The notes beneath the pieces were generated by a model that was not told where the DNA came from, ran no database searches, and saw nothing but the letters and a program-made list of their open reading frames with translations. This document shows positions 17,318 through 37,004 of a stretch of 38,078 nucleotides of DNA, one piece after another. Source of the stretch: Anaerolineales bacterium (GTDB lineage Bacteria > Chloroflexota > Anaerolineae > Anaerolineales > RBG-16-64-43); the NCBI GenBank assembly GCA_049684495.1, contig JBAVFZ010000315.1, positions 1-38,078 of the forward strand, read 5' to 3'. A program made the translations under genes and the position numbers. Within the stretch, counting starts at the first letter, position 1. Each line of letters begins with the position of its first letter.

Positions 17318-19195
17318 TCAGACGCTGGTGAGGTCCGGCGGAGGGGCCTGGCCAATCGTGCCTTCGGCCATCGAATTCAACCCGAGAATCAATTTCTGGA
17401 CTTCCCCGCGTTCCGCCTGGCCGGAAAGCTCCTCGACTTTGGATCGAAGCGCGTCCGGTTCGAGGGCATGATTTTCCCCGACCAGCCGGAGGATATCCGG
17501 ATGATTGGTCGGCCGCAGGGCTGTTTCGTCTTCCCAAAGCTGCTCGCTGAGTTTTTCGCCGGGCCGCACGCCGGTGAAAACGATCGGCACATCCTTGCCG
17601 GGTTCCAGGCCGGAAAGGCGGATAAGATCCTCGGCCAGCGAGACGATCCGCACCGGCTTTCCCATCCGCAGGAGGAGCGTATCCCCGCCTTCGCCCAGGA
17701 TCGCGGCCTGCAGCACCAGGTGCACCGCTTCGGGGATGGTCATGAAAAAGCGTTCCATATCCGGGTGCGTCACCGTCACCGGACCGCCGCGGGCGATCTG
17801 CCGCTTGAAGACGGGGATCACCGATCCGCGGCTGCCGAGCACGTTGCCGAACCGGACCGAGACATACGGCCTTCCGCTCCTGTGCGCCGCGTCCTGGACG
17901 ATCATTTCCGCCAGCCGCTTGGTGGCGCCCATGACGCTCGTCGGCCGGATCGCCTTGTCGCTGGAAATGAGCACCAGCCGCTCCGTGTTCCCTTCCAGCG
18001 CCAGGTCGACCAAATTGCGCGTCCCGAGGACGTTGTTGGTGAACGCTTCCTCGACGTTGATCTCCATCAGCGGCACGTGCTTGTGGGCCGCGGCATGGAA
18101 CACCACCTGGGGCGAGTGGGTGTGGAACACGGATTGCAGGCGGTCCCGGTCGCGGATATCCGCGATGACCGGGTGGAGGGCCAGTTCGGGATAATCCTCC
18201 CCCAGCGCGAGGAGCGCTTCGAAGATGCTGTTCTCCCCGTGGCCCAGAAGCAGAATTTCGCTCGGCCCCCAGCGCGCGATCTGCCGGCAAAGCTCGAAGC
18301 CGATCGAGCCGCCGGCGCCGGTGACCATCACCCGTTTGCCGCTCAGGGCGTACCCGACGGCCTGGTCGCCGGTGTGGGCCGGCGCCCGGCGCAGCAGGTC
18401 GCTGACCTCGACGTTGCGCAGCCGCCCGGCGCTCACCCGGCCGCCGATCAGTTCATACAGCCCGGGCATGGTCTGGTAGGGCAGCTTCCCCTTCCGGCAC
18501 AGGTCCGAAAGTTTCCGGAACACCTCGCCCGAGGCGGAGGGGATTGCGAACACCACTTCGTCCGCTTCCTGCTCGCGGGCGATCCGCATCACACTGTCCA
18601 GCCGGCCCAGTACCTGCACTTCGTGGATCCGCTGGTTAAGTTTTTCCGGCGCATCGTCGAGGAAACCGATCGGGATCATGCGCAACTGGGGATTTTTCTG
18701 CATCTCGCGCGCCACGAGCGCGCCCGCGTCGCCGGCCCCGGCGATGAGCACCCGTTTGGTCGCGCCGCTGCCCGGCATCCGGCGGCGGGCCTGCATGAGT
18801 TCCGAGAGCATGCGGATCGAAAACCGCAGCCCGCCGGTCAGCACCAGGCTCACCAGCCCATCGATGATCGGGATCGAACGCGGGATGCGCGGGAGGCCGA
18901 AGGGGAAGGTCAGGAAGTAATAGCCGTACATCAGGAGGACGTTGACCCCGATCGCGGCGATGATTAACTCCGCTTCCTTTATGCTGGCGTACGCCCAAAA
19001 GCGCCGGTACAACCCGAATCGCCAATACACGATCGGTTTTACGAGCAAGGCCGCGGCGATCATCCACAACGCCGCCGGCAGATAGAAGACGAACACATCG
19101 CGCAAGGCCAATGAGACCAGGATGGAAAGGGCGATGAATACCAGATCGGCCAGGAACAGGTAACGGTTGCGGAGCAGGACGATGGATTTGTTCAT
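17318..19195 (-). CDS. Membrane-anchored polysaccharide biosynthesis protein CapD/PglF/WbpM-like (UDP-sugar 4,6-dehydratase family)
   Basis: ORF track 17318..19225. ATG 19195 overlaps the epimerase stop as ATGA (19192-19195). The N-terminus has four hydrophobic helices. A first Rossmann-like motif (LIAGAGDAGALVAREM) is followed by VMVTGAGGSIGFELCRQI. SSDKAIRPTSVMGATKRLAE is the M-x3-K variant typical of this family. Confidence 0.88.
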   Translation of the reverse strand: MNKSIVLLRNRYLFLADLVFIALSILVSLALRDVFVFYLPAALWMIAAALLVKPIVYWRFGLYRRFWAYASIKEAELIIAAIGVNVLLMYGYYFLTFPFGLPRIPRSIPIIDGLVSLVLTGGLRFSIRMLSELMQARRRMPGSGATKRVLIAGAGDAGALVAREMQKNPQLRMIPIGFLDDAPEKLNQRIHEVQVLGRLDSVMRIAREQEADEVVFAIPSASGEVFRKLSDLCRKGKLPYQTMPGLYELIGGRVSAGRLRNVEVSDLLRRAPAHTGDQAVGYALSGKRVMVTGAGGSIGFELCRQIARWGPSEILLLGHGENSIFEALLALGEDYPELALHPVIADIRDRDRLQSVFHTHSPQVVFHAAAHKHVPLMEINVEEAFTNNVLGTRNLVDLALEGNTERLVLISSDKAIRPTSVMGATKRLAEMIVQDAAHRSGRPYVSVRFGNVLGSRGSVIPVFKRQIARGGPVTVTHPDMERFFMTIPEAVHLVLQAAILGEGGDTLLLRMGKPVRIVSLAEDLIRLSGLEPGKDVPIVFTGVRPGEKLSEQLWEDETALRPTNHPDILRLVGENHALEPDALRSKVEELSGQAERGEVQKLILGLNSMAEGTIGQAPPPDLTSV

Positions 19196-20136
19196 GCCGC
19201 CCCGCCCTCCGCGCCCCTCATCCAATTCAGAGTCTCAGCCAGCCCGGTCCGGAATTCCGTCTGCGGGCGAAACGCCAGCAGCGCGCGGGCGCGGGAGGGA
19301 TCAGAGTGCGAATGGTAGATGTCGCCGGGGCGCGCGGCGGCGAAGGTCAGCGGAATGCGCGCGCCGCATAGTGAGGATAGTTCGGAATGCAATTGCAGCA
19401 GGCTGCGGCCGCGCCCGGTGCCGATGTTCAGGACTTGCCCGGCCGCGCGCTCCGTTTCACATGCCAGGCGGTTGGCCCGGACCACATCCGCTATATAAAT
19501 GAAGTCGCGCGTCTGTTTGCCGTCGCCGAAAACGGTCACCCCGCCGCCGGTGATCGCGCGCGAGGCGAAAATGGCGATCACGCCCGAATAGGGGGAAGAG
19601 GGATCCTGGCGCGGGCCGAACACATTGAAGTAGCGCAGGCACACCACCGGCAGATCGTAGGAATGATAGAAGGAAACCGCGAGGGATTCTCCCGCCAGTT
19701 TGCTGACGGCGTAGGGGGAAAGCGCGTGGGTCGCCTGATCCTCTTTGGCGGGAAGCGCGCCGGCGCCGTAAACCGCGCAGGATGAGGCCATCACCAGCCG
19801 CCGGACCTTCGCGCGTTTTGCGGCCTGCAATACGTTCAACGTTCCGGTGACGTTCACCTCCAGCGTGTCTTCCGGACGCTCCACCGACTCCGCCACCGAG
19901 ACCATGGCCGCGTGATGCAGCACGTAATCCACGCCGCGCATCGCGGATTGAAGCTCGCGCCGGTCGCGGATGTCGCCCTTGCGGACGTCCACTTTGCCGC
20001 GCAGCGCCGCCAGGTTTTTCCGTTTCCCGGTGCTGAAATTATCGAGAATCCTGACCGCGTGTCCGTCGCGGACCAGGTTTTCCGCCAGATGCGATCCGAT
20101 GAATCCGGCTCCGCCGGTGATGAGATAAGTCGACAA
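19192..20136 (-). CDS. Extended-SDR NAD-dependent sugar-nucleotide 4-epimerase-like enzyme (WbpP/TviC/GalE family)
   Basis: ORF track 19192..20280. The preferred start is TTG 20136, with GGGAGG 9 nt upstream, giving (M)STYLITGGAGFIGSHL. Other motifs are LDNFSTGKRKNL and the catalytic SPYAVSK (YxxxK). The longer N-terminal extension is Arg/Gly-rich and would overlap the GT2 gene. Confidence 0.85.
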   Translation of the reverse strand: MSTYLITGGAGFIGSHLAENLVRDGHAVRILDNFSTGKRKNLAALRGKVDVRKGDIRDRRELQSAMRGVDYVLHHAAMVSVAESVERPEDTLEVNVTGTLNVLQAAKRAKVRRLVMASSCAVYGAGALPAKEDQATHALSPYAVSKLAGESLAVSFYHSYDLPVVCLRYFNVFGPRQDPSSPYSGVIAIFASRAITGGGVTVFGDGKQTRDFIYIADVVRANRLACETERAAGQVLNIGTGRGRSLLQLHSELSSLCGARIPLTFAAARPGDIYHSHSDPSRARALLAFRPQTEFRTGLAETLNWMRGAEGGAA

Positions 20137-20186
20137 CGCGATCCGCCTCCCAGCGGGAAAATGCCATTTTACCAACTCGCCCGGGA

Positions 20187-21236
20187 TCAGGTGCCCGCCC
20201 GCCCTCGCGAAGCGGGGGGCCGTCCCCGAAACAGCCGGCCCAGCGACCTCGCCGCCCCGATCCAGAAACCGACGCCCCATGCGGAATGGATGCAGAAGAA
20301 GATCAACATCAAGGTCGGAAAAAGCGCCGCATCCTTCCGAACCGCAGCCTCCCGGCCGGCAAATCCGGCGCTGACCGCGGCATATGCCAACAGCTCCAGC
20401 CCGAGAATTATAGCCAATGGGGGCAGGAGGAAGGATCCGGCGCCCAGAACGGCCAGTGAGGGCGCGAATAAGGCCGGGATTAATTGCCGCAGCCGGATCG
20501 ATTTCGGGTGGAACGACAGCATGACCGCTTTCTGGCGCCCGTAAAAATAATACTGCCGCACGAGCGCGGCCAAATCACCGCGGGCGATATACCGGGAACG
20601 GATCGCCGGCGAGAAGAAGATCCTCCCGCCGGCCGCCCGCACCCGGTAATTGAATTCATAATCCTCGTTGACCGGAACCCGCTCGTTGAACCCGCCCACC
20701 CGGCGGAACACGTCGCGGCGGAATGCGGCGAAGGGAACGGTATCCACCTCGCCCTCCGTCCCGCCCGACCGGTAGCGCACGCCGCCGGTGGCGAATGGGT
20801 TGGCCACGGCCGCGGCAATCGCGCGCGCAACGACTCCTCCGCCCCCCGGCTGGATGGAAATCCCGCCGCCCACCCCGTCGCATCCCGACCGCTCGAACGC
20901 CCGCACGCATTGTTCGACATAATCCGGATCCGGGATGGCATGCGCGTCCATGCGCAGGATGATCTCACCGTGCGCCTCGCGCAACGCGGCGTTCAATCCG
21001 GCCGGCGCGGAAAGCCCCGGGTTGTCGACCCAGCGCAGCGCCCATCCGGGATGGGCCCGCGCAAAGCCCTCGATTCTTTCCCGCGTCCCGTCGGTGGAGC
21101 GGCCGTCGGCGACGATCACCTCGATCCGCCCGGCCGGAAACGACTGCCGGTGCAGCGCCTCGAGGACCTGTTCAATCGTCCGTTCCTCGTTGCGGCACGG
21201 GATCAGTACCGAAATCCGGGGGGGGGATTCGCTCAT
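20187..21236 (-). CDS. Family 2 glycosyltransferase, ExoA-like, with C-terminal TM helices
   Basis: This is the tail of track ORF 20187..21917. ATG 21236 overlaps the upstream GT4 stop as ATGA (21233-21236). Motifs are ISVLIPCRNEE, VADGRSTDGT, RMDAH and NEDYEFNYR. The C-terminus is hydrophobic (LIPALFAPSLAVLGAGSFLLPPLAIILGLELLAYAAV, LFPTLMLIFFCIHSAWGVGFWIGA). Confidence 0.85.
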   Translation of the reverse strand: MSESPPRISVLIPCRNEERTIEQVLEALHRQSFPAGRIEVIVADGRSTDGTRERIEGFARAHPGWALRWVDNPGLSAPAGLNAALREAHGEIILRMDAHAIPDPDYVEQCVRAFERSGCDGVGGGISIQPGGGGVVARAIAAAVANPFATGGVRYRSGGTEGEVDTVPFAAFRRDVFRRVGGFNERVPVNEDYEFNYRVRAAGGRIFFSPAIRSRYIARGDLAALVRQYYFYGRQKAVMLSFHPKSIRLRQLIPALFAPSLAVLGAGSFLLPPLAIILGLELLAYAAVSAGFAGREAAVRKDAALFPTLMLIFFCIHSAWGVGFWIGAARSLGRLFRGRPPASRGRAGT

Positions 21237-22429
21237 CGCGGACGGGAGCCCAGGAGCGCCTGGTATTGCTCTTCGAGGTCGGCGGCAATCCCGCTCCAGC
21301 CATATCCTTCGGCGAAGGCGCGGGCGGCTTTGCCGATCCGTTTCCGTTCGGTGGCCTGGCGGAGCAGGCGAATGACTTCCACGCCGAACGACCGGTCGGC
21401 GGCGGCCAGGAGGATTTCCTCCCCGCTGCGCGCGGAGATTCCCTCGGCGCCTACCGGCGTGCTGACGACGGTTTTTCCGGCGGCCATGGCCTCCAGAATT
21501 TTCAACCGCATCCCTCCGCCCGAGCGCAGCGGGACGATCACAACAGAAGCGCGGTGCAGATACGGCCGCACGTCGTCGACAAATCCGGTCACCCGAATGT
21601 TGCGGTCCTCTTCCGGCCAGTGCAGGATGTCGGCCGGCGGCGACTTTCCGACCACGATCCAGCGCGCGGTCGGCTCTTCCTGCGTGACCCGCGGCCACGC
21701 CTTGGTGCGGAACCAGCGGACGGCATCCGCGTTCGGCGGCCAATCCAGCGCGCCCACGAACACAATCGTCCCGGGCTCCTCGCTCATCGGCTGCGGACTG
21801 TACCGCTCGAGGTCGACCCCCGCCGGGGATACGGCCACCGATGCATCCGGCACGAGCTTCAGAATCCGTTCGGCATCCTCCTGGGTGATCGCCACGCACA
21901 GATCGGCCTGCTGGCAAGCCCGCATCTCAAACGCGCGCATCCGCCGCGATTGAATCCGAACGTAATGGTTCAACGGGAAGATGGCCGTCCGGGCGTACCG
22001 CTCCTCCAGAATCCACTCCACATTTTGCAGCCGCAGGACCGCCTGAACCCCCAGACCCTGCGCCAATCCAAGGTAATGCGCCATGTGGGTGCCTTCCAGA
22101 TGGACGAGGTCGAATCGCTGCTCGTGGAAGGCCTCGCGGATGGCGGCGGTCATGGCGCCGGAGCGGTACTTCGAAGCGGTATACGGCATCGGCGATAGTA
22201 CCGCCAGTGCGGCACCCAAATAATTGGTCGCGGTATTGTGTTGAATCGCCTTGGCCCAGACCAATCCGGCCCGGGTGCGGAATTCGTCCGCCGCACCCTG
22301 ATCGCCAAAACCCAGAAAGCCCGCCTGATGCCCGCGCGCCGTCAGATGCCGGATTAATTCGTACAGCGCGATCCGGGATCCGTCGGTGGCCGGCCATGGA
22401 ATTTTCGGGGCAACGAACAGAATTTTCAT
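21233..22429 (-). CDS. Family 4 glycosyltransferase (GT-B)
   Basis: 398 aa. The N-terminus is MKILFVAPKIPWPATDGSRIALYELIRHL. The C-terminal E-x7-E region is VIVPLRSGGGMRLKILEAMAAGKTVVSTPVGAEGI. There is a 1-nt gap to the upstream gene. Confidence 0.88.
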   Translation of the reverse strand: MKILFVAPKIPWPATDGSRIALYELIRHLTARGHQAGFLGFGDQGAADEFRTRAGLVWAKAIQHNTATNYLGAALAVLSPMPYTASKYRSGAMTAAIREAFHEQRFDLVHLEGTHMAHYLGLAQGLGVQAVLRLQNVEWILEERYARTAIFPLNHYVRIQSRRMRAFEMRACQQADLCVAITQEDAERILKLVPDASVAVSPAGVDLERYSPQPMSEEPGTIVFVGALDWPPNADAVRWFRTKAWPRVTQEEPTARWIVVGKSPPADILHWPEEDRNIRVTGFVDDVRPYLHRASVVIVPLRSGGGMRLKILEAMAAGKTVVSTPVGAEGISARSGEEILLAAADRSFGVEVIRLLRQATERKRIGKAARAFAEGYGWSGIAADLEEQYQALLGSRPR

Positions 22430-22430
22430 A

Positions 22431-23951
22431 TCAGGCGAGCCTCACCAGTTGGTCCTCGCGCCGCCGGCGCATCCGGATATGCCACGCGATTACGGCGGCA
22501 GCGGCCGCCCCCAGCGCCAGCAGGATCGGAACTATGCTGTCCAGCTTCCAGGCCATGAAGCCGATCAAGGGAATCCAGACGAGCAATCCAACCACCCACC
22601 ATCTCCGGCTGAAGACCAGCCCCTCCGCCGCCAGCATCAGCGCGATGGGCATGATCATGTCCCGGTGCCGGTATTCCCGGGGTATGAAAATGGATACAAC
22701 CAGAAAAACTGCAACCGCATAAAAGAGCACCGGCCATATCCCGCCCCGGCTGCGGCGGACCGCTTCCCGGATCCCCAGGATGGAGAACGGCAGCAGGAAA
22801 TACCACATCCACATTCCGGGGAAGGCGATCATGTAGGTTTCGAAGCGCGGCACCTCGGGCAGGGTTCCCGGCAGAAGCCAGGCATACGGCGCGAGGGCGG
22901 TGGAGAACATCGTCAACCCCATGTACTTCGCGAAACCGGCCGGATGCACGAGGATCCATTCCGCGAAAGTGCCGATGGTTCTTGTGTTGGGAATTTCGGT
23001 GACCTGGAACAGCGAGGATCCGGTATCCACGGTGACATCGAAGAGATGGCGCGCGGAAATCAACGGCCAAAGGACGGCCAGGAGGATCAACGCCGATCCG
23101 ATAACCAGTATCCATCGCATCGGCCGGCCGTTTTTCAAGAATTCGACCAGCAGAACCGCCCCGACAGCCCCCGCCAGTACGACAGGGATGTAATTGCGAA
23201 GTTGTCCGGCGAGCAGAAAAACCGCGATCATCACCGCCGCCCAACCGGCGGCGCGCAGAATCCGTACGGGGGGTTTATCCGGAAGGACCAGAATGTTCCA
23301 AAGCCGGTACAAACCCAGGAAGAACAGCAGGATAAGAAAAAGGAAGAGCGGGTCCTTCAGGGTCATCATTTCCCAGAGCCAGAACCCGGTATAGAACGCC
23401 GTCAACCACCCGGCCCAACGCGCGGTGACCGGGCCGAACAGCATCGCCGAAATCCGGTAAACCAGATACACCGTCGAAGCCCCGAGGACGGTGTTGATGA
23501 CGATCGCCGCGGCGGTCGCGTGGCCGATCAGGAAATACAGCCCGGCCAGCAACCGCGGGTAGATGTCATCCAGGAGATAATCCACCGGGCCGAGCTTTAC
23601 GGCAGCCGCGGAGCTATGCCAGGCCTGGGCCAGGGCCCAGGCCACGCGGTCGTAGGTTTTGGAGTCGTCGTAAATATATCCTTCGTTCCCGCCGATGCTC
23701 CAATGGAAGAGGGCGGCGGCCGCAAGCCGCACGCCCAGCGCCACGAGGAACAAACGGACCACAAACCGGCGTTCCTCTTCGGGGGAATCAAAAAGCGCCA
23801 GACCGAGCGCCAATCCGCCGGCCAACAGAAGGGTGAACAGCGGGGCGCCGGCGGTCTCCCACGGCAGCAAGGCGAACCCAAGCGCTCCCGCAACAGCCAG
23901 GAGCGCCGAAAGCCAGAAAAAACCTTGGCGTTTAAGGATCGGCTTCATCAT
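22431..23951 (-). CDS. 506-aa polytopic membrane protein, GT-C-like (ArnT/PMT/DUF2029-like) glycosyltransferase or polymerase candidate
   Basis: This is the tail of track ORF 22431..24353. ATG-ATG at 23951 lies 8 nt after the upstream GT4 stop. There are about 12 hydrophobic segments, and the first loop carries GNEGYIYDDSKTYDRVAWALAQAW. I recognise no nucleotide-binding or Wzx-type features. The upstream 134 codons are a shadow overlapping the GT4 gene. Confidence 0.6.
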   Translation of the reverse strand: MMKPILKRQGFFWLSALLAVAGALGFALLPWETAGAPLFTLLLAGGLALGLALFDSPEEERRFVVRLFLVALGVRLAAAALFHWSIGGNEGYIYDDSKTYDRVAWALAQAWHSSAAAVKLGPVDYLLDDIYPRLLAGLYFLIGHATAAAIVINTVLGASTVYLVYRISAMLFGPVTARWAGWLTAFYTGFWLWEMMTLKDPLFLFLILLFFLGLYRLWNILVLPDKPPVRILRAAGWAAVMIAVFLLAGQLRNYIPVVLAGAVGAVLLVEFLKNGRPMRWILVIGSALILLAVLWPLISARHLFDVTVDTGSSLFQVTEIPNTRTIGTFAEWILVHPAGFAKYMGLTMFSTALAPYAWLLPGTLPEVPRFETYMIAFPGMWMWYFLLPFSILGIREAVRRSRGGIWPVLFYAVAVFLVVSIFIPREYRHRDMIMPIALMLAAEGLVFSRRWWVVGLLVWIPLIGFMAWKLDSIVPILLALGAAAAAVIAWHIRMRRRREDQLVRLA

Positions 23952-23959
23952 AGAAAAGA

Positions 23960-25084
23960 TTATCCCGCGGTGGAACGGCCGGCCAGCACATCGGAATAAA
24001 CCGCCCGCGTTCCGTCGATCATTCGCTGCAGAGTATACTCCCGCGCGCGAAGCGCCCCCTCCCGCCCCATCGAAACGCGCATTTCCGGATTCTCTCCCAG
24101 GCGGGTCATGGCTTCCGCCAGCAATCCCGGATCCCGGCGGGGAACCAACAAACCCGTAACGTCCGGCTCGACCAGATCCCGGTTGCCGCCGACATCCGTG
24201 GCAATGCAGGGCAGGCCGCAGGCCATCGCTTCCAGCAGGGTATAGGAAAAACTTTCGAAATCCGAAGGCAGGACAAACACATCCGCGGCGTGCATGGTTT
24301 CGCGGATATTCTCGCGCATTTGCACCCCCATCAGGTCCAGGCGCTTTTTCCAACCGCCCGTTTCCGCGGTGCGCACCAGTTCCTCGCGCTTCGGTCCCTC
24401 CCCCGCCGCCTGCAGACGCGCTCCGGGAATCCGCCCGGCCACAATCTCGAAGGCTGCCGCCAGATTCTCGATTCCTTTCTCGCGCGCCATCCGGCCGACG
24501 TATAAGAAACGGATTTCCCGGTTCGGTCGTAAAAGGTGCAGCGCGGGACCGAACCAGTCGGCTTCCAATCCGTTCGGGACAAGCGCGGCTTTTTCCGGCG
24601 GGATGAGGCGCCCGTCAAGATAAATCCGGCGGATTGTTTTCGATACGAAAATCACTCTCTCGGAGGCCTGCCGGTTAAGCAGGCCTTCCGCCATCCGGTA
24701 CGCGCGGACAGCCAGCGGATTGGCCGGGAGGAAGAACGAGGGCGTGTGGACCGTGTGGACGGCGGGCAACCCCGCCGCGCGGGCCGCGATGCGCCCCAGC
24801 AGCCCGCCGCGGGTGTCGTGGGTGTGCACCAATTGAATCCCCCGGGCAAGAAATTCTTTTCTCAAGCGAAGAAACATCCGCCCGTCGAATTTCCCCGCCG
24901 GCGGGAGCGCCGCGCACTTCACGCCCAGCCCCCCGGCATTCGAAAGAAACGGTTCGGCGAGCGTTCCCAGGACGTGGAATTCAAATTCCTTCCCAAGCCC
25001 GTGGAATAATTGCAGCAAGTGGGTTTCTATTCCCCCGATGGCCAAGGGCGAAAAGGAGACGATGGCGATTCGCGGCCTGCTCAC
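23960..25084 (-). CDS. Family 4 glycosyltransferase (GT-B)
   Basis: 374 aa. The GTG start overlaps the upstream stop as GTGA (25081-25084). Motifs are RIAIVSFSPLAIGGIETHLLQL and VFVLPSDFESFSYTLLEAMACGLPCIATDVGGNRDLV. Confidence 0.88.
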   Translation of the reverse strand: MSRPRIAIVSFSPLAIGGIETHLLQLFHGLGKEFEFHVLGTLAEPFLSNAGGLGVKCAALPPAGKFDGRMFLRLRKEFLARGIQLVHTHDTRGGLLGRIAARAAGLPAVHTVHTPSFFLPANPLAVRAYRMAEGLLNRQASERVIFVSKTIRRIYLDGRLIPPEKAALVPNGLEADWFGPALHLLRPNREIRFLYVGRMAREKGIENLAAAFEIVAGRIPGARLQAAGEGPKREELVRTAETGGWKKRLDLMGVQMRENIRETMHAADVFVLPSDFESFSYTLLEAMACGLPCIATDVGGNRDLVEPDVTGLLVPRRDPGLLAEAMTRLGENPEMRVSMGREGALRAREYTLQRMIDGTRAVYSDVLAGRSTAG

Positions 25085-27547: not shown

Positions 27548-27548
27548 G

Positions 27549-29462: not shown

Positions 29463-30595
29463 GGACGCTCCAGCGCTTCCAGAATAGGTTCGGCCCTGCG
29501 TTCCCAAGTATAGGCTTCCACGTCCTTGCGCGCCCGGCCGGCAAGTGTTTCCGCCAGCGCCCGGTCCTCCAGCACGCGCCGCAGCCCGCGGGCGATTTGA
29601 TCGGGGCTGTCGGGCGCCACCAGGAGCGCATTCTCTTCGTGGCGCAGCACCTCGCGCACGGACGGGAAATCGGTGGCGACGATCGGCCGCCCGGCCGCCA
29701 TGTATTCGAACATTTTCAGGGGGGACATGGCGCGGGCGGTGGCGGTGCGGGTGGTATAGGGCATGATCAGCGCATCCGCCGCCCACAGGTAGAGGGGCAC
29801 CTTTCCGTTCGGAACGGTCCCTTCAAACCGCACCCGGTCGCACAAATCCCGCCCGGCCGCGAGGGCGCGAAGGCGGTGGATATCCTCGGGATTGCCGCCG
29901 ATCAGCACCAGCAGAACATCCGGCAGGGAGGATAAGGCTTCCAGGGTTTCTTCCACGCCGCGGCCGGGATACAAATGGCCGGCGTGACACACGATCCGGG
30001 CCGCGGCCGGAAGCCCCAGTCGCGCGCGGGCTTCGTCCCTCCCAACGGCCGGTTCAAACCGCTGCAGGTCCACCCCGTCGGGCGCAAGGCGCAGGAGCTC
30101 GCGGCGCGCGCCGGCGGCGGCGTAATCCTCGATCAGGGATTTGGAAATGCAGAAGATCCCCCGCAACGCGGGGGAAAGCCCCGGATCCCCCACCAGCTTC
30201 CGCCACACCGGGTGGCGCCGGTCTTCCTCCAGATAATGCGCTTCGAAACTCACGCGTACGCCGGCCCGCGCCAGCCAATAGGCGGACCACGGTTCGCGCG
30301 TGTGGACGTACCGCGCGCCCCGAAGGCGCGCCCGGAGCACCGCCGCCAGCGCGTAGCCGCGAACCGCAAACCGCTCGCCCCAATGCGGAAACGGAACCCA
30401 GGTCACCTCGAATGACCGCGCCAGGGCGAACCGTTCGCGCAGATCCGCTTTTTGCCGGGCATCCTCCGGATAATACGGCGCGATCAACTCCACCGGGACG
30501 TGCGCGGCGAATCCGGAGCACATTTTCAGCGTCTGCACGCAGTTGGCGCGAAGCGAGGGAATGCGCGAGCGCGCGATGTAAACCAGCTTATCCAT
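29459..30595 (-). CDS. Family 4 glycosyltransferase, paralogue pair A (member 1)
   Basis: 378 aa. Motifs are RSRIPSLRANCVQTLKMCSGFA, GGNPEDI and ALIMPYTTRTATARAMSPLKMFEYMAAGRPIVATDFPSVREVL. Its ATG lies 8 nt inside the upstream gene. Confidence 0.82.
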   Translation of the reverse strand: MDKLVYIARSRIPSLRANCVQTLKMCSGFAAHVPVELIAPYYPEDARQKADLRERFALARSFEVTWVPFPHWGERFAVRGYALAAVLRARLRGARYVHTREPWSAYWLARAGVRVSFEAHYLEEDRRHPVWRKLVGDPGLSPALRGIFCISKSLIEDYAAAGARRELLRLAPDGVDLQRFEPAVGRDEARARLGLPAAARIVCHAGHLYPGRGVEETLEALSSLPDVLLVLIGGNPEDIHRLRALAAGRDLCDRVRFEGTVPNGKVPLYLWAADALIMPYTTRTATARAMSPLKMFEYMAAGRPIVATDFPSVREVLRHEENALLVAPDSPDQIARGLRRVLEDRALAETLAGRARKDVEAYTWERRAEPILEALERP

Positions 30596-31769
30596 GGGCG
30601 CCGGCGGTGAATTCGAGAATCCGTTTCACGCGGCCGCGCCAGGAGAACGGCCGGACGTCGGTCCGGGCCTGGGCCGCGAGCCGTTTCCTTCTTTCCGGAT
30701 TCTTCCGGAGCTTCGCCAGCGCCTCCGCCCAGGCGGCGGGATCGTCCGGCGGAAGCAGAATGCTGTTGGCGTCGCTCAGCATCACGCGCAGCGCGGGAAG
30801 ATCGCTGGAGAGGATCGCCCGTCCGGCGGCCATGTATTCATACAATTTCATCGGACTCATGATCTCGGCGGTGTTGCCCTTGCCACGGACCGTCACCTCC
30901 TGCTGATACGGCATGAGCAGCACGTCGCAGGCAGCCTGATACAGCGGCACCTCGGCGTTCGGCACGTGCCCCAGCCAGCGGATGTTCTCCGCCGCGGCCG
31001 TCCGGGTTTTCCAAGCCTCAACCTCCTCGGGGTTTCCGCCCAGCATCAGGAATTCCACCTCGGGAAGCCGTTGCGCCAGGTCACAGATCAATTCCACGCC
31101 GCGTCCCGCCACCAGGCTGCCGAAATAACCCGCCGTGAACCGTTTTGCGGCCAGGTGGAGCCGCACCCGGGCCCGGACAGGCGCGGGCAGATTCCGGTAC
31201 GGCTCCGTATCCACCGCATCGGGGGCCACCAGCAACTCGCGGCTGTGAAGCGCAGGGTACGTCCGGCGCAGGTTCTCTTCCAGAGCGCGGCTGATGACCG
31301 CCAGCCGGATGTTGCGCGTTCTGAGGATCTGCCGGAAATACAGCGGGCCGATCCGCCCGGTCGGCGGATGATGGATCTCGAGCATGACCGGGAAGCCGTG
31401 CTGGGCGACCGCCCAGGCGATATCGATCCCGCGCGTGTACGCCAGATCCGGCGCTATCCGCGCCGCCTCGTCGGCTTCGGCCCAGGCCAGTCCGCGGCGT
31501 CCCAGAAGCGGGAGCAATTTTACGCGGCGGGCGAGGAACCCGGAGGCCAGCCCGTATTGGCGGATGACGGATTCGGACAGGGGAATATCGCCCGCGGTCG
31601 GGGCGGGATATTTTCTCCCGGCGTCGTCGGAGGGCGTCTCATCCGCCGGCGGGAGGATCAAATGCACCTCGTGCCCTTCCTGCGAGAAAGCCTGGCACAT
31701 CTTCATCACCTGCAGGCTGTTGGCCGAAGTGGAGGGTACGGTCGCGGAACTCAGGTAAGCGATCTTCAT
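30588..31769 (-). CDS. Family 4 glycosyltransferase, paralogue pair A (member 2)
   Basis: 393 aa. Motifs are SATVPSTSANSLQVMKMCQAFS, GGNPEEV and VLLMPYQQEVTVRGKGNTAEIMSPMKLYEYMAAGRAILSSDLPALRVML. ATGA overlap with the upstream gene at 31766-31769. Confidence 0.82.
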   Translation of the reverse strand: MKIAYLSSATVPSTSANSLQVMKMCQAFSQEGHEVHLILPPADETPSDDAGRKYPAPTAGDIPLSESVIRQYGLASGFLARRVKLLPLLGRRGLAWAEADEAARIAPDLAYTRGIDIAWAVAQHGFPVMLEIHHPPTGRIGPLYFRQILRTRNIRLAVISRALEENLRRTYPALHSRELLVAPDAVDTEPYRNLPAPVRARVRLHLAAKRFTAGYFGSLVAGRGVELICDLAQRLPEVEFLMLGGNPEEVEAWKTRTAAAENIRWLGHVPNAEVPLYQAACDVLLMPYQQEVTVRGKGNTAEIMSPMKLYEYMAAGRAILSSDLPALRVMLSDANSILLPPDDPAAWAEALAKLRKNPERRKRLAAQARTDVRPFSWRGRVKRILEFTAGAHG

Positions 31770-32938
31770 CCAGACCCCAGGATCGAACGATAGATATCCA
31801 TTTGTTCTCCGGCAAAGCGCTCCCAGGTCAGGGTTTCGGCGCGGGCCCGCCCGGCCATTCCCATTGTACGCGAGAGCGCGGGGTTTTCGGCAAGCGCTAT
31901 CATCGCCCGGGCGATCCCCTCCACATCATCGGGCGGCAGCAGGAAACCCGTTTTGCCGTCGATAACGGCGTCCGGGATACCGCCGCTGCGGGTGCCGATG
32001 ACCGGCAGCCCGTACGCCCCGGCCTCCAGGAAGACAAAGACAAATCCCTCGAAGTGATCCCCCTCATCCTGCGACGTCATCGCCAGCATGTCCGCCTTGC
32101 GATAATACGGATCCAGCTCTTCCCAGGTGAGGGCGCCCAGGAACTCGACATTGCGGATTCCCTCGCGGCGGATGAGTTCTTCAAGCCCGCGTTGGTATTC
32201 GTTTCCGATCCCGCCTCCGGCCAGCAGGTAGCGCGCATTGGGGAACCGCTTCTGCAGGATGGCGAACGCGCGCAAACTGATGTGGTAACCCTTGCGCGGT
32301 TTGATGCCTCCGACCGAGATCACGCTCGGATCGGATGAAAAAATTTTCTTTTCGGCGGCCGCCCGGGGCACGCGCCCGGCGAACTCGGAACCCTGCAGCA
32401 CGACCCGGATGTTGGCACCGGTGAGCGGGGCGGCAAACCGGGCGCGCATTTTTTCCGCGGTGCCGGTCGACATCGGGCAAATGCACGCCGCCCGGCGCAG
32501 GATGCCGGCGCAGATCCGGGCCGGGATCCGCCACCGGTGCCAGATCACTCCGTATGTGCCGAAGGTGGTGACGACGTGCGGCGCCCCTTCGCGCCGGGCG
32601 AGGATGTCGCCGATCCACCCGGCGGGGAAGAGCTCGAGCGAATGGACGATGCGCACCCCGAGGCGCGGGAGCGACCGCAACGCGAGCAGCGCCGGCAGCA
32701 TGTGCGCCACGGAGCGAATCGAGCCGGCGACGTTGGGTTGGATCTCCGGGAGCGCGAACACCTGAGCATCCGGAAAAAGCGAATGCGCCGCATCCCGGTC
32801 GGCCTCGGCCACGATCAATACCGGCTCGATTTGGGGTCCCAGCGAACGCAGGATTCCAAGCGTCGCCGTCGGCCAGCCGCCCGGCCCGCGCAAAAGCGGA
32901 ACGACGAATGCGATCCGGATGCGGGGTGATTCGGTCAA
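31766..32938 (-). CDS. Family 4 glycosyltransferase, paralogue pair B (member 1)
   Basis: 390 aa. Motifs are RIRIAFVVPLLRGPGGWPT, VRIVHSLELFPAGWIGD, GIKPRKGYHISLRAFAILQKRFPNA and HFEGFVFVFLEAGAYGLPVIGTRSGGIPDAVIDG. Confidence 0.82.
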   Translation of the reverse strand: MTESPRIRIAFVVPLLRGPGGWPTATLGILRSLGPQIEPVLIVAEADRDAAHSLFPDAQVFALPEIQPNVAGSIRSVAHMLPALLALRSLPRLGVRIVHSLELFPAGWIGDILARREGAPHVVTTFGTYGVIWHRWRIPARICAGILRRAACICPMSTGTAEKMRARFAAPLTGANIRVVLQGSEFAGRVPRAAAEKKIFSSDPSVISVGGIKPRKGYHISLRAFAILQKRFPNARYLLAGGGIGNEYQRGLEELIRREGIRNVEFLGALTWEELDPYYRKADMLAMTSQDEGDHFEGFVFVFLEAGAYGLPVIGTRSGGIPDAVIDGKTGFLLPPDDVEGIARAMIALAENPALSRTMGMAGRARAETLTWERFAGEQMDIYRSILGSG

Positions 32939-32958
32939 GGTGTGATCCTATCTTCCAG

Positions 32959-33074
32959 GGTCATTCCGAGGAGCCCGAAGGGCGACGAGGAATCGGCATC
33001 AAAGTTGAGTAAGCCCAATTCATCCATTGCGCAACCGATTCCTCCCCCTCGCCTTCGGCTCAGGGTCGGAATGA
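32959..33074. repeat. Inverted pair of GTCATTCCGA...GGAATCGG modules (37 and 41 nt) around a 38-nt spacer
   Basis: Left module (32959-32995): gtcattccgaggagcccgaagggcgacgaggaatcgg. Reverse complement of the right module (33034-33074): gtcattccgaccctgagccgaaggcgagggggaggaatcgg. The termini GTCATTCCGA/TCGGAATGAC and the inner ends GGAATCGG/CCGATTCC are perfect inverted repeats. The element fills the only large gap (151 nt) inside the glycan operon. Confidence 0.75.
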
Positions 33075-33089
33075 CTCCGAAAAGTATCC

Positions 33090-34283
33090 TCAGCCGCCCA
33101 GCAGCCGGGCATACGCCTCCCATTGCTCCTCGGCGAAGAGCTCCCAGGTCAGGTGTTCGGCCCGCTGGCGTCCGGCCGAGCCCATCCGGTCGGAAAGCTC
33201 CGGGTCCTCCGCCAGCCGGATCATCGCCTGCCCGGCCGCCTCGGCGTCGGTGGGATTCACCAGAATTCCGGAATCGCCGTCGATCACCACATCCGGAATT
33301 CCCCCGCTGCGGCTGCCCACGGCGGGCAAGCCGTAGGCGCCGGCTTCCAGGAAAACCAACCCGAAGCCCTCGAAGTGGCGGTCCACTTCCTGGGACAGCA
33401 GAACGAACATCGACGCCTCGCGGTACAGCTGATCCAGCCGGGCCGGATCCACTGTGCCGAGAATTTTCACCCCGCGCATTTTTTCACTGCGGATGATGTT
33501 TTTTAATAGAAGCTGATACGGCCCGTCCGGCGGCCGGCCGACGATGTTGTACACGGCGTCGGGGAACCGTTTCTGCAACCGGGCGAAAGCGGCCAGGCTG
33601 ACGTGGTACCCCTTGCGCGGCTTGACCATCCCGACCGAAAAGACCACCGGCGCGCCGGACGGCCGTCTGCGCCGCGCCGCATCGGGCGGAACCTGTTCCG
33701 CCGCGCGGGAGCCGCACAGGATCGTCCGGACGGTGACCGACCCCAGGTCCGCGTTGTAGGCACCCCATAATTTTGCTTCCGTGCCGTGGGAGATTGGGTA
33801 GATGGCCGCCGCCCGGCGCAGGACCCCGTGGTAGTGGCGGTCCAGGAACGGCCACTTGCTCCACAGGATCGCATACGTCCCGAAGGCGGTGAGCACATGC
33901 GGCTTTCGCTGCGAGCGGGCCAGCGCATCCCCGGCCCAGCCGGCGGGAAACATCTCCATCGAATGCACCAGGCGCACATGCAGATCCGGTATCCGGCGCG
34001 CAGCCCAAAGCGAAGGGATCATCCAGCGCAGCATGGAAAGCGTGGTCCCGCTCCACTCTTCGGCCTGGACCGTGGGCAGGACATGCCGCTCGAGGTGGGG
34101 AAATTTTGCCGCCGCCGCGGCCTGATCCCCGCGGGAAACGATCAGAACCGGCTCGACATATTTTTGGAGCGAGCGGATCGCCCCGTCGACGAAGGTTACC
34201 CATCCGCGGAATCCGCGCAGATAAGGGATCAGATAGGCGATGCGCGGTTTGGATCCGGAACGGGCGGAGCTTTTGGTCGGCAT
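33090..34283 (-). CDS. Family 4 glycosyltransferase, paralogue pair B (member 2)
   Basis: 397 aa. Motifs are PRIAYLIPYLRGFRGWVT, VRLVHSMEMFPAGWAGD, GMVKPRKGYHVSLAAFARLQKRFPDA and HFEGFGLVFLEAGAYGLPAVGSRSGGIPDVVIDG. It is collinear with the 31766..32938 product along the whole length. Confidence 0.82.
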   Translation of the reverse strand: MPTKSSARSGSKPRIAYLIPYLRGFRGWVTFVDGAIRSLQKYVEPVLIVSRGDQAAAAAKFPHLERHVLPTVQAEEWSGTTLSMLRWMIPSLWAARRIPDLHVRLVHSMEMFPAGWAGDALARSQRKPHVLTAFGTYAILWSKWPFLDRHYHGVLRRAAAIYPISHGTEAKLWGAYNADLGSVTVRTILCGSRAAEQVPPDAARRRRPSGAPVVFSVGMVKPRKGYHVSLAAFARLQKRFPDAVYNIVGRPPDGPYQLLLKNIIRSEKMRGVKILGTVDPARLDQLYREASMFVLLSQEVDRHFEGFGLVFLEAGAYGLPAVGSRSGGIPDVVIDGDSGILVNPTDAEAAGQAMIRLAEDPELSDRMGSAGRQRAEHLTWELFAEEQWEAYARLLGG

Positions 34284-34287
34284 GCCG

Positions 34288-35952
34288 TCAATCCCCGCCG
34301 AGCCGGTGCAATTCCTGGATCAGGGAAACGGCGCCGTTGCGGATTTCCGCGCCCCAGATCCGCTCCCGCCGCCGGCGGAGTTCGCCGGCCGGGAGCGCAT
34401 GCGCCCTGCGGATCGCATCCGGGAGTTCTTCAGGGTGTACCGCCGCTTCGGCCAATCCTTCTTCCACCAGTTCGCGGCCGTAGGCGCGGGTGGTTTTCAT
34501 CCAGATGATGGGAACCGACACCAGCGCCGCTTCATAGAGAACCGAACTGTAGGTGCCGATCGCCGCATCCACTTGTGCACAGGCTTCATATACGGACCCG
34601 GTCCGAAGCAGCCGCACGTCCGAAGCGGACAGCGAGTATTCTTCAAGACTTTTTTCGGATTCTCCGGGACGGAGTTTGAGGTAGAGTTCGAAACCGGGAT
34701 CCCGAATCAGCGCCCGCAGGTAGGCGGCCACTTCGCTTTTTCTCGCCAGCGGTTCGGAAACCACCAGGACGCGGATCTTCGCCTCCGGACCGGCGGGTAT
34801 TCGCGTTGTATCCAATTCAGCTGCCGTTACATCCGGCGGACGGACCGGACCGGCGACGAACACCCGATCCGGCGCGAAGAGCGCGCTATCGCGGAGCAAC
34901 CGGTCGCGGAACAGGCCGCTCCATACGCCGTAGCGGTCGAAGGCATGCGGACGGGCGCCGGAGAAACCGTACGCCATCAACCCGGCGTGGAATTTGTTGA
35001 ACACGCCGTGCTGGAATCCGAGAACCGGGATCCCGAGCGTCAGGCAGGCGGCGATGAGTTCGAAGTTGTGGCGATTGTCGTCGAAGATCACCGCCCGGCG
35101 GACGCGCTGGAACCGCAGCGCGCGTTTCAGGATCCGCTGGCGGGCGATGGATTGAAGACCGGCTTCGATCGCGACCGGGACCAATGCCCGCAGCGCGCGA
35201 TCCTCGATCGATAACGGTCCGCCGGAAGGCAGGTTCACAACCGGTGCCGGAATCCGCACTCCGGTCAGGCGTGCCAGGAAATCCGCCGATTCAAGAAAGT
35301 AGACCGGCCTTCGCCGCCGGAAAAAGTTTTTTATCGCCTGATGGGGGGAAAGGGTATGCGCAAATTCCGCAAAACGGTATCCTGACTGTTTTAGTTCGCG
35401 GTACAGCGGGGTGAACCGGAAATCCTCGCGCAATCCCGGGCTGACATGGTCGATGATGTAGAAGAGCGTATCCCGCCGGGCGATCCGGAACACGGCCAGC
35501 GAGGTGAGGGTCAGCGCCAGCGTCGCCCACCGGCCAAGTGAACCCTTTTGCTTCGCCAATGCGCCGCCGGCCGGGCCGGGGAATCCCTCTTTCCCGCCGA
35601 TCGCCCGCAGCACCCGTTCGAGATCCGGCGGAGCATCCTCCACGCGGATATTTTTCTTTCCATCCACGGCGGAGAGGAGCGGGAGCAGTTGGGTCAGGGG
35701 AACGAGGTAGAAGCGCAGGAGCCGGTCCTGGCCGTACCACCACGGTTCGAAGCCGTCTTCGGTGAGGATCGACGGGATGGGCTTGCCTGAGGCGTCGGTC
35801 TGGCTGTTGAACTTGCGGAGAAGGTCGAGCGCCCGGTCCCAATCCGGCACCGCGACGGGAATGGGCGCGCCCTCCGTCTGCTCGAACGCGCCGTCGGTGG
35901 CGGGGTCCGGGCGGAAGCGCAGATGCGATGGGGTGTCGCCGCCTGCGCCCAT
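34288..35952 (-). CDS. 554-aa orphan protein: unassigned N-terminal domain, one TM segment, C-terminal GT-B-like (TagF/KpsS-like?) domain
   Basis: This is the tail of track ORF 34288..36546. ATG 35952 lies 8 nt after the oxidoreductase stop. There is one hydrophobic segment (WATLALTLTSLAVFRIA). Motifs are VIFDDNRHNFELIAACLTLGIPVLGFQHG, YLKLRPGES and AAIGTYSSVLYEAALVSVPIIWM. The family assignment is uncertain. Confidence 0.6.
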   Translation of the reverse strand: MGAGGDTPSHLRFRPDPATDGAFEQTEGAPIPVAVPDWDRALDLLRKFNSQTDASGKPIPSILTEDGFEPWWYGQDRLLRFYLVPLTQLLPLLSAVDGKKNIRVEDAPPDLERVLRAIGGKEGFPGPAGGALAKQKGSLGRWATLALTLTSLAVFRIARRDTLFYIIDHVSPGLREDFRFTPLYRELKQSGYRFAEFAHTLSPHQAIKNFFRRRRPVYFLESADFLARLTGVRIPAPVVNLPSGGPLSIEDRALRALVPVAIEAGLQSIARQRILKRALRFQRVRRAVIFDDNRHNFELIAACLTLGIPVLGFQHGVFNKFHAGLMAYGFSGARPHAFDRYGVWSGLFRDRLLRDSALFAPDRVFVAGPVRPPDVTAAELDTTRIPAGPEAKIRVLVVSEPLARKSEVAAYLRALIRDPGFELYLKLRPGESEKSLEEYSLSASDVRLLRTGSVYEACAQVDAAIGTYSSVLYEAALVSVPIIWMKTTRAYGRELVEEGLAEAAVHPEELPDAIRRAHALPAGELRRRRERIWGAEIRNGAVSLIQELHRLGGD

Positions 35953-35960
35953 GAAGAGCC

Positions 35961-37004
35961 TCAGCCGCCCGGCGCTTTCCGGATTGCGCGTTCGAACGCC
36001 GCGCCGAAATGCTCGTTCAATTCCTCGACATGCAGCGCTTCCTCGGGCGAGGTGGGATTGACCCCGTCGTGCAGGACGTAATCCAGAAAATGGTTGATGA
36101 CATACTCGTGCGGCGAGGGCGGCGCGGCTTGTTTGGGCTTGACGCTGAACCGGGCGCCGAGCCAGCGGCGGAACAGTTCCGCGGAAATCTTCGCATTCGG
36201 CCGTTCGGCGAGGGCGAAGGCGGTCTTGTAGGAGAACATGAAGGACGCCTTGGTCCCGTGCAGGATGTTGATCCGGCGCTTGGTTTCTTCGGGATTGGCC
36301 GACATGCGGATGTTGACATATCCCTCTTTGCTTTCCAGGACGACATCCACTTCGTCGGCGCTCATCCACGGCCACTTGTTGGTGGTTTTGCGCGCGGCGA
36401 CGGAAAGGAGGCGCATCTCGCCGACGAGCGCGTAGGCGATGTAGAGCTGGTGCGGGAGGCTTTCCGCCCAGCGGCCGCCGGGGATCTTGTGGCACCAGAA
36501 GTTCGGGTCGATCACCATCCGGTCCTGGTCGCCGTTGGTCATCCACGTCAGGCCGACGTGCAATACGCGTCCCGCCTCGCCGCGCCGGACGATATCCGTC
36601 ATGCGCAGGATCCCCGCCATGAATTTATTCTGATGCACGACCGACAGCTTCCGGCCGGTGCGCTGCTGGACGGCGATGATCTCGCGCGCTTCTTCCAGGG
36701 TCACGGCAAACGGTTTTTCCAGCAGCACGTCCGCGCCGTGCTCGAAGGCGTAGATCGTGAGGTCTTTGTGGGTCTGCGGCGGGGTGCAGATCGAGACGAT
36801 CCGCGCGCCGCTTTGGCGGAGGCCTTCCTCGAGCGAGGGATACGCGCCCGGAATCCCGTTTTCGTCCGCGACGCGCCTCGCGCGGGCGAGATCCGGATCG
36901 ATCATCCCGACCAGCTCCACCTCGGGATGGTTCTTAAAGAAGGGCAGATGCCGAACAGCGCCGGCAACGCCGCTGCCGACGATAAGAACCTTGGTTTTTT
37001 CCAT
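35961..37004 (-). CDS. Gfo/Idh/MocA family oxidoreductase (sugar or sugar-nucleotide dehydrogenase candidate), first gene of the glycan operon
   Basis: 347 aa. The Rossmann motif is KVLIVGSGVAGA and the EKP motif is VLLEKPFA. GGAG lies 5 nt upstream of ATG 37004. Confidence 0.85.
   Translation of the reverse strand: MEKTKVLIVGSGVAGAVRHLPFFKNHPEVELVGMIDPDLARARRVADENGIPGAYPSLEEGLRQSGARIVSICTPPQTHKDLTIYAFEHGADVLLEKPFAVTLEEAREIIAVQQRTGRKLSVVHQNKFMAGILRMTDIVRRGEAGRVLHVGLTWMTNGDQDRMVIDPNFWCHKIPGGRWAESLPHQLYIAYALVGEMRLLSVAARKTTNKWPWMSADEVDVVLESKEGYVNIRMSANPEETKRRINILHGTKASFMFSYKTAFALAERPNAKISAELFRRWLGARFSVKPKQAAPPSPHEYVINHFLDYVLHDGVNPTSPEEALHVEELNEHFGAAFERAIRKAPGG

Follow-up and report, generated by a model that had tools for sequence, protein, structure and literature searches.

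A tightly packed sugar-polymer operon kept in uncultured Anaerolineales (Chloroflexota) encodes two predicted GT-C glycosyltransferases

The window considered here, meaning the whole stretch of DNA that was analysed, is a complete contig of 38,078 bp (JBAVFZ010000315.1; GC content ~64%) from an Anaerolineales bacterium, and it carries a real, tightly packed sugar-polymer operon that is kept in uncultured Anaerolineales (Chloroflexota). Sixteen intact open reading frames (ORFs), all on the minus strand, run from g01 (start at 37004) to g16 (stop at 17318); the gaps at their junctions, read 5′ to 3′ with overlaps negative, are 8, 4, 151, −4, −8, −4, 1, −4, −1, −4, 8, 1, −4, 11 and −4 nt, and 13 of the 15 are 8 nt or less. 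The overlap motifs on the minus strand are ATGA (five times), GTGA, TGATG and the 8-nt ATGGATAA. A first-pass annotation of the window had given these coordinates and motifs exactly, and its parts list of eight family 4 glycosyltransferases (GT4), one family 2 glycosyltransferase (GT2), a dehydratase, a short-chain dehydrogenase/reductase (SDR) and a Gfo/Idh/MocA oxidoreductase is confirmed by Pfam. It ended the operon too early, at 17318, overlooking a tetratricopeptide repeat (TPR) gene, g17 (15829..17301, minus strand). Because the ATG of g17 lies 16 nt past the g16 stop and the gene is syntenic in 14 loci, we count it as the 17th gene of the cluster, whose true end is at 15829.

The g01-to-g16 order is kept in loci L001 (in the NCBI metagenome-assembled genome (MAG) GCA_016932475.1), L003, L005 and L026 and, more widely, in 17 GTDB species genomes labelled as Anaerolineales, Anaerolineae or Chloroflexota MAGs, whose sources are peat, fen, sediment and soil, and in several metagenome contigs. 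The first-pass annotation had made its interpretation depend on such conservation of the block in relatives. Across these loci the proteins that we assign below to the GT-C fold class of glycosyltransferases fall to 35–40% identity, and gene order is conserved far more than chance would allow. The g06–g09 slot is the variable part: it holds either g07 and g08 or a protein of 387–389 aa with eight transmembrane (TM) segments, DUF8201 or DUF6056 polytopic proteins are added near it (slot proteins have 8–11 TM segments), and g10 is missing in some loci. Such swapping between lineages is what one would expect if the slot encoded strain-variable decoration enzymes.

Four products of the operon, g02, g07, g08 and g12, find no Pfam match even at E-values up to 10 and nothing useful in NCBIfam. 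Two of them, g07 and g12, are polytopic and had been described beforehand as GT-C-like enzymes of a non-STT3 kind, a description that held up. The 637-aa g07 protein (27549..29462, minus strand) has ~10 hydrophobic segments and a C-terminal soluble domain of ~120 aa, and its 41 homologues all come from uncultured Chloroflexota where the source is named. While g07 itself stays below threshold, 8 of 28 aligned members of its family match Pfam PMT (best 4.9e-9), and on account of these matches g07 is predicted to be a divergent PMT-like GT-C enzyme and not a Wzx, Wzy or WaaL protein. Invariant residues of the family are D144, within an RDD motif, Y148 and H149, and the family profile found no match among PDB sequences. 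The gene is absent or replaced in L011, L012, L013 and L015.

Immediately downstream of g07 is g08 (27383..27547, minus strand), which encodes a 54-aa single-TM microprotein that the first-pass annotation had listed as a membrane peptide. Every g07 homologue or paralogue examined is followed by a small ORF for a single-TM protein with the motif Y[FL]L...YGW[LF], and in L011, from which g07 is cleanly absent, g08 is absent too; g08 is a real gene and an obligate neighbour of g07. In L006/L024, a 1.9-Mb contig of MAG MFD10007.bin.1.28, three to four g07-like polytopic genes (660–688 aa) stand in tandem, and the 660-aa copy and a frameshifted g07-like copy each precede a g08-like microprotein of 52–61 aa.

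The second polytopic protein, g12 (506 aa; 22431..23951, minus strand), belongs to a close family with no Pfam match and, when searched as a family profile, no match among PDB sequences. The top 20 Foldseek matches of its AlphaFold 2 (AF2) model (pLDDT 80) are all GT-C enzymes, namely STT3, AglB, DPY19, ArnT, AftB, ALG12 and PMT, at a probability of ~1, and no WaaL or Wzy appears among the structural matches; comparison with WzxE gave a probability of 0.07–0.13 and a TM-score of ~0.12, and other transporters were likewise at noise level. An exhaustive profile search gathered 1800 relatives, and it was only by this route, followed by a Pfam scan of the remote matches, that the link to PMT_2 emerged: 38 of 40 remote relatives, sampled at E-values of 1e-29 to 1e-15, contain PMT_2, and a profile of the broader set matches STT3A at 5e-4. 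Given the GT-C structural neighbours and the PMT_2 domains of remote relatives, g12 is best read as a very divergent PMT_2/ArnT-type GT-C enzyme, not as Wzx, Wzy or WaaL; its invariant residues are D95 and R427. One remote relative, P0194 (661 aa), joins a PMT_2-like GT-C to a C-terminal PglC-type Bac_transf phosphoglycosyltransferase (PGT) domain, a fusion which hints that the GT-C subfamily of g12 works on polyprenyl-phosphate-linked glycans.

Both polytopic proteins have a conserved DD (D144 in g07, D95 in g12), both lack a WWD or WxDYG motif, and their links to Pfam families lead to PMT and PMT_2 and not STT3. The two families show no detectable relationship in hhalign (probability 0.5%), and by this comparison they are independent GT-C lineages and not paralogues. 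Two polytopic proteins without a Pfam match among many glycosyltransferase genes would also fit an ordinary Wzx/Wzy-dependent exopolysaccharide locus in which one of them is the polymerase or flippase, an outcome that the first-pass annotation had named as fatal to its own reading. We regard this as highly improbable, since relatives of g07 match PMT and those of g12 match PMT_2, the structural neighbours of g12 are GT-C enzymes without exception while WzxE scores as noise, and neither Wzy_C, Wzz or another polysaccharide co-polymerase (PCP) nor a PGT domain is found in any locus; Wzx has no Pfam match in the window or the annotated loci.

The product of g17 is an exported or membrane-anchored protein of 490 aa with Pfam TPR matches. 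Its gene directly follows g16 in each of the 14 loci long enough to include this position, at identities down to 36–38%, and in 13 of them it shows a clear N-terminal hydrophobic signal/anchor and is separated from g16 by 16–65 nt, the exception being L013, where calling of the start failed. Because of this N-terminal signal/anchor, the TPR domain is predicted to be extracytoplasmic. An extracytoplasmic TPR protein that is invariably linked, together with the family ties of g07 and g12 to PMT and PMT_2, brings to mind protein O-glycosylation, in which g07 and/or g12 would act with g17 to glycosylate secreted or surface-layer proteins; TPR domains serve the TMTC-type GT-C protein O-mannosyltransferases, which have a PMT_2–TPR arrangement. 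This reading is quite improbable, however, as a glycan on a protein that has already been exported cannot be extended by ten cytoplasmic transferases, some lineages do without g07, the locus has no conserved target protein gene, and the PMT_2 clan also holds many lipid- or glycan-directed enzymes such as ArnT.

The remaining products of the operon, all encoded on the minus strand, are putative glycosyltransferases of the cytoplasmic face and nucleotide-sugar enzymes. Eight are GT4 proteins by Pfam: the tandem paralogues g03 (33090..34283; Glycos_transf_1, 1e-36) and g04 (31766..32938; 4e-34), which are 50% identical, the paralogues g05 (30588..31769) and g06 (29459..30595), at 32% identity, and g09 (26214..27386), g10 (25081..26214), g11 (23960..25084; 4.5e-38) and g13 (21233..22429), the last resembling the stp1-like model TIGR03087 in NCBIfam at 233 bits, below its 317-bit cutoff. 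Several GT4 products match glycolipid synthases weakly in NCBIfam. The membrane GT2, g14 (20187..21236; Glycos_transf_2, 3e-27), consists of a GT-A domain followed by C-terminal hydrophobic segments (TM segments at residues 252–329), an architecture that fits a GtrB/ArnC/GacI-type synthase, but its best matches are other GT2 enzymes: 6yv7 in the PDB (GT2, 1e-17), with the dolichyl-phosphate mannose synthase (DPMS) 5mlz at just 1.8e-6 over the N-terminus, and MftF, EpsD and PgaC-like models in NCBIfam. A GT4 takes its place in L017, L019, L022 and L024.

The 554-aa g02 protein (34288..35952), previously called an orphan, is predicted to have a GT-B fold and is a putative tenth cytoplasmic transferase. 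It has no Pfam, NCBIfam or PDB sequence match, also when its family profile is compared with PDB sequences, and its AF2 model (pLDDT 89.5) finds the GT1 enzyme CalG4, UDP-GlcNAc 2-epimerases, MurG and PglA in Foldseek with E-values down to 2e-10, which makes the GT-B fold a confident structural prediction for an undescribed family. There are 90 homologues, the distant ones located among glycan genes; we considered that context in L007 and L008 as a functional clue and set it aside, the glycan genes there being mixed with transposases and giving nothing specific.

Among the putative nucleotide-sugar enzymes, g01 (35961..37004; Pfam GFO_IDH_MocA, 7e-28) is an NAD(P) oxidoreductase, putatively acting on nucleotide sugars, whose best NCBIfam match, UDP-GlcNAc 3-dehydrogenase, reaches 80 bits, far under the cutoff. 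g15 (19192..20175; Pfam Epimerase, 6e-65), with a start codon at either 20175 or 20136, is a GalE/LegB/TviC-like SDR epimerase/reductase with NCBIfam matches that all lie under their cutoffs. g16 (17318..19195; Polysacc_synt_2, 2e-108, and CoA_binding_3) is a membrane-anchored UDP-N-acetylhexosamine (UDP-HexNAc) 4,6-dehydratase of the CapD/PglF/WbpM type, with ~3 N-terminal hydrophobic segments (residues 5–95) and PseB and FnlA as its best NCBIfam matches; it aligns to WbaP/WcaJ models solely at their non-catalytic N-terminus.

The operon's promoter probably lies where the first-pass annotation had placed it, near 37070. A motif search found an extended −10 element, TGGTATAAT, at 37077–37069 on the minus strand, followed by a leader of ~55 nt and the Shine–Dalgarno sequence GGAGATGG. 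The −10 core CTGGTATAAT is invariant in six loci (the window, L001, L003, L026, L108 and L031), and the leader after it is well kept in the same six, while the sequence farther upstream diverges; from this pattern we infer that the element is the operon's promoter. Just one intergenic gap is large, the one that separates g03 from g04, and it is filled by an RNA hairpin of ~115 nt (32960..33075, minus strand; minimum free energy −67.7 kcal/mol, z −3.97), the arms of which recur at that junction in L001, L003, L009 and L011, while the more distant L012 and L015 have a different long hairpin there. It is followed by no T-run, which rules out an intrinsic terminator, and it is single-copy in the window, which rules out a dispersed repeat; it may serve in the processing or stability of the mRNA.

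Upstream of g01 the contig soon ends. A minus-strand frame at 37254..38078 that runs off the contig is the 3′ fragment of an MsbA-type fused ATP-binding cassette (ABC) exporter, and it is not part of the system: it matches just the nucleotide-binding domain end of the MsbA, HlyB and PglK models (for PglK, 110 bits against a cutoff of 1000), its GC content of 38% and third-position GC (GC3) of 32% compare with 64% and ~78% for every other gene, and it is absent upstream of g01 in all 10 relatives' loci whose upstream flank was seen. The 38%-GC stretch makes up the last 1 kb of the contig, from ~37080 onward, and this end is probably not native context but the product of a chimeric join in the assembly or of a recent insertion of foreign DNA. 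The fragment was therefore rejected as a PglK/MsbA-like flippase of the pathway on the grounds of its GC3, its truncation and its absence in relatives.

The upstream context of g01 can be read in relatives, where Wzm/Wzt genes lie on the same strand 4–11 kb upstream of g01, both in a near clade (L031, L030, L027) and in a distant one (L107, L109). On a single contig and strand, L031 carries genes for a PseF-like cytidylyltransferase, a HAD protein, Wzm, Wzt (with Wzt_C), a methyltransferase, PIG-L, WbqC, three GT4 proteins, GH35 and a soluble 262-aa protein, and then g01; L026, L027, L030, L034 and L108 hold overlapping stretches of this arrangement, the intervening part being confirmed in L026 and L108. 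In the distant clade the order Wzm–Wzt–GT4–GT4–ABC–GT4–GT4 directly adjoins g01. The relatives' ABC proteins score best to TagH/galactan-Wzt and galactan-Wzm/KpsM models. In the near clade the genes for a GH35/GlmA-like glycosidase and for the soluble 262-aa protein, which belongs to no family, always stand together between the Wzm/Wzt block and g01 (L026 5729–8499; L001, L003, L030, L031, L034, L108); the two may have a role such as glycan trimming or recycling.

The first-pass annotation had remarked on the lack of both a priming transferase and an exporter. For the window this stands, and no primer is found in any locus, but the exporter appears upstream of g01 in relatives, and its absence here is probably for the most part an artefact of where the contig ends. 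The apparent lack of the two can be put down to truncation of the contig and to the habit of priming enzymes to be encoded away from such clusters; for ABC-dependent pathways a WecA/TagO-type primer at a separate locus is the rule (PMC9574508).

The combination of GT4 and GT-C enzymes without a PGT also suits a lipoglycan like the phosphatidylinositol mannosides (PIM), lipomannan (LM) and lipoarabinomannan (LAM) of mycobacteria, in which GT4 enzymes would glycosylate a membrane glycerolipid with no polyprenyl priming and the GT-C enzymes would extend it after flipping, using polyprenyl-phosphate-sugar donors. PimA and PimB are indeed GT4 enzymes and PimE and Mpt are GT-C enzymes using polyprenyl-phosphate-mannose (PMC3485146, PMC12041525), and the weak matches of several GT4 products here to glycolipid synthases point the same way. 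We nevertheless find a lipoglycan improbable: eight GT4 genes far exceed the two to three cytoplasmic steps of PIM synthesis, the cluster contains no acyltransferase or Ppm1-like synthase, and a Wzm/Wzt exporter is linked to it in two clades. The presence of g16 is a further difficulty, as a membrane dehydratase of the PglF/CapD type typically supplies the reducing-end sugar of polyprenyl-diphosphate-linked glycans.

Because Wzm/Wzt genes lie upstream in relatives, the pathway is most simply understood as ABC-transporter-dependent, producing an envelope glycan that undergoes GT-C steps after export, and we give this interpretation about an even chance of being right. On this view the 17 genes would form the distal transcription unit of a larger system for a cell-envelope glycan, carried by an uncultured lineage of Anaerolineales. 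Going by family membership, g16, g15 and g01 would make modified donors of the UDP-HexNAc type, and up to ten cytoplasmic-face transferases (the eight GT4 proteins, g02 and g14), placed there by fold and topology, would assemble a glycan on a polyprenyl-phosphate carrier, priming being left to an enzyme of the WecA/TagO or PglC type whose gene lies elsewhere. Wzm/Wzt would export the product, a coupling of operon and exporter suggested by their conserved linkage in relatives. Outside the membrane, g12 and the exchangeable g07/g08 would attach sugars or oligosaccharide blocks taken from donors linked to polyprenyl phosphate, and the exported g17 might act as a scaffold or acceptor-binding partner. 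The GT-C assignment of g07 and g12 is carried by fold and family evidence, which also supports the earlier suggestion of a lipid-linked glycan locus with extracytoplasmic GT-C steps; the donors, acceptors and chemistry named for them are putative. To our knowledge, the PMT-type GT-C enzymes characterised so far take sugars linked to polyprenyl monophosphate and not oligosaccharides linked to the diphosphate. Post-export additions by GT-C enzymes to ABC-dependent backbones are established, including ones that draw on oligosaccharide donors carried by undecaprenyl phosphate (C55-P) and involve small membrane activators (PMC9574508), and GT-C enzymes take lipid-linked donors (PMC11127046).

Several observations weigh against this interpretation. 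The Foldseek TM-scores of g12 are low, at 0.35–0.40. The window contains no Wzm/Wzt genes, its contig ending 1 kb upstream of g01 in foreign-looking DNA, and the linkage to the exporter is not universal, as in L110, an intermediate clade, the genes that precede g01 are unrelated. A phmmer search with Bac_transf recovered no priming enzyme from the window and 25 loci (508 kb), and PF02397 and PF00953 had no match in the annotated loci. No GtrB/GacI-type polyprenyl-phosphate-sugar synthase is identifiable, g14 resembling other GT2 enzymes more and being replaced by a GT4 in some loci, and no GtrA, Wzx or small multidrug resistance (SMR) flippase for the GT-C donor was seen in the ~45 kb context; a MATE-type one is likewise absent from the operon and the flanks examined, where the other membrane proteins are only g08 (1 TM), g14, g16 and g17. 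Finally, in the near clade the two blocks are set apart by GH35, the 262-aa gene and an additional, separate promoter, and the blocks could therefore be making two independent glycans. In L110 (15–4263), the place of Wzm/Wzt upstream of g01 is taken by adjacent genes for a 937-aa PTPS_related polytopic protein and a 477-aa GT2.

The possibility of two glycans can be put more specifically. A membrane GT2 (or a GT4) would start an oligosaccharide on polyprenyl monophosphate, as GacI and WpsA do, so that no diphosphate-type priming transferase would be needed; GT4 enzymes would extend it, an unlinked flippase would turn it over, and the GT-C enzymes would polymerise it or transfer it en bloc onto the Wzm/Wzt product, as with the lactococcal polysaccharide pellicle (PSP) on rhamnan. 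Such a self-contained second glycan would account for the lack of a PGT domain in the window and 25 loci, for a membrane GT2 (g14) and for two GT-C enzymes with many cytoplasmic transferases in one operon under its own conserved putative promoter, the upstream block having GT4 genes and an exporter of its own. It also has a precedent in C55-P-oligosaccharide donors and the GT-C enzymes WpsJ and WpsI (PMC9574508). Even so, we judge it rather unlikely, as g14 does not look GtrB/GacI-like in either NCBIfam or PDB comparisons and gives way to a GT4 in four loci, neither a Wzx- nor a GtrA-type flippase lies in or near the cluster, and the small protein g08 tracks the GT-C g07 and not the GT2.

A bolder form of the ABC-dependent interpretation would have g12, g07 with g08 as its obligate subunit (a pairing reminiscent of STT3–Ost4), and the TPR scaffold constitute a Chloroflexota-specific extracytoplasmic module that ligates or polymerises oligosaccharide blocks, built by the ten transferases, onto a Wzm/Wzt-exported backbone. 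This is tentative, and we consider it possible though doubtful. If true, it would mean at least three new glycosyltransferase families and a first model of how a wall or sheath polymer of filamentous Anaerolineae is built.

Downstream of the cluster, the ~850 nt between the g17 stop and the next gene (14972–15828; GC 58.5%) hold no recognisable gene, only two plus-strand ORFs of 145 aa without a Pfam match. Next comes a tRNA-Leu(GAG) gene (14889–14971, minus strand), situated between g17 and a fused glyQS gene and furnished with a perfect TTGACA-16-TATAAT promoter (14988–15015) and a terminator with a 10-bp stem (14859–14885). It is overlooked by a default Rfam gathering scan and was recovered by ARAGORN and by an E-value scan, which gave 46 bits. 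A T-box leader upstream of glyQS was considered and ruled out, the promoter and hairpin pair being the tRNA gene's own promoter and terminator. The glycyl-tRNA synthetase (11686–14718, minus strand) is a single fused alpha–beta polypeptide of 1010 aa (tRNA-synt_2e and tRNA_synt_2f), and its gene is syntenic downstream of the cluster in closer relatives.

Although Anaerolineales abound in peat, sediments and digesters, next to nothing has been learnt of their envelope chemistry, and this cluster is carried by uncultured lineages. The conserved cluster provides a concrete inventory of the parts behind a major envelope glycan, and with it three families that current libraries leave unclassified: the GT-B protein g02, g07 with its partner g08, and g12. 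Our literature search found no prior description of this cluster or of GT-C enzymes in Anaerolineae. ABC export followed by GT-C finishing is known from Firmicutes, Actinobacteria and Proteobacteria, and it probably extends to Chloroflexota.

Of the known systems, the Campylobacter pgl locus was the one to which the first-pass annotation had loosely compared the operon. The two share a PglF-like membrane dehydratase, an SDR epimerase, several GT4 enzymes, a GT2 and GT-C enzymes acting last, but the parallel is weak, as the operon has no PglB-type (WWDYG/STT3) enzyme, PglC, PglD or PglE, and the lone PglK-like gene is the 38%-GC foreign fragment at the contig end. With the three-component systems, such as GtrABC, ArnC/E/F/T and the O-antigen side-chain systems of Klebsiella and Citrobacter, it would have in common that a GT-C enzyme modifies an exported glycan, including ABC-dependent ones (PMC11127046). 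Here, however, only the GT-C component is recognisable, the synthase and flippase being missing from the locus, and the GT-C genes sit inside the main assembly operon instead of forming an add-on cassette.

Mycobacterial arabinogalactan and LM/LAM likewise begin with cytoplasmic GT-A and GT-B steps, followed in the case of galactan by a Wzm/Wzt-like exporter, and then employ several extracytoplasmic GT-C enzymes on polyprenyl-phosphate sugars, the WecA primer and Ppm1 synthase being unlinked (PMC3485146, PMC12041299). The relatives' ABC proteins find the NCBIfam models for galactan Wzm/Wzt among their best matches. The operon differs in that its GT-C enzymes are of the PMT/PMT_2 type and not Emb, Aft or Mpt, that it lacks genes for synthesis of decaprenyl-phosphoryl arabinose (DPA) or polyprenyl-phosphomannose (PPM), and that its sugars are probably of the 6-deoxy-HexNAc type.

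The rhamnose-rich wall loci of streptococci, lactococci and enterococci, namely the group A carbohydrate (GAC), the rhamnose-containing cell wall polysaccharides with their pellicle (Rha-CWPS/PSP) and the enterococcal polysaccharide antigen (EPA), are one of the two closest comparisons and likewise concern a monoderm envelope glycan. In these systems a backbone made in the cytoplasm is exported by a Wzm/Wzt-type ABC transporter with the TagO/GacO primer encoded elsewhere, and extracytoplasmic GT-C enzymes add variable side chains, sometimes as whole C55-P-carried oligosaccharides, with the involvement of a small membrane protein, GacJ or WpsB (PMC9574508). The operon, by comparison, has no rml genes, rhamnosyltransferases, GacI-type GT2 or GacK/CflA flippase, its small protein pairs with a GT-C enzyme and not with a GT2, and its GT-C enzymes are unrelated in sequence to GacL, WpsJ and CsdB. 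What it has in addition are eight GT4 enzymes, the undescribed GT-B family and an exported TPR protein, in a chloroflexotal host. Because the exporter lies just upstream in relatives, the cluster appears to be a novel variation on an established route to cell-envelope glycans and not a new pathway, and it would overturn no existing pathway concept.

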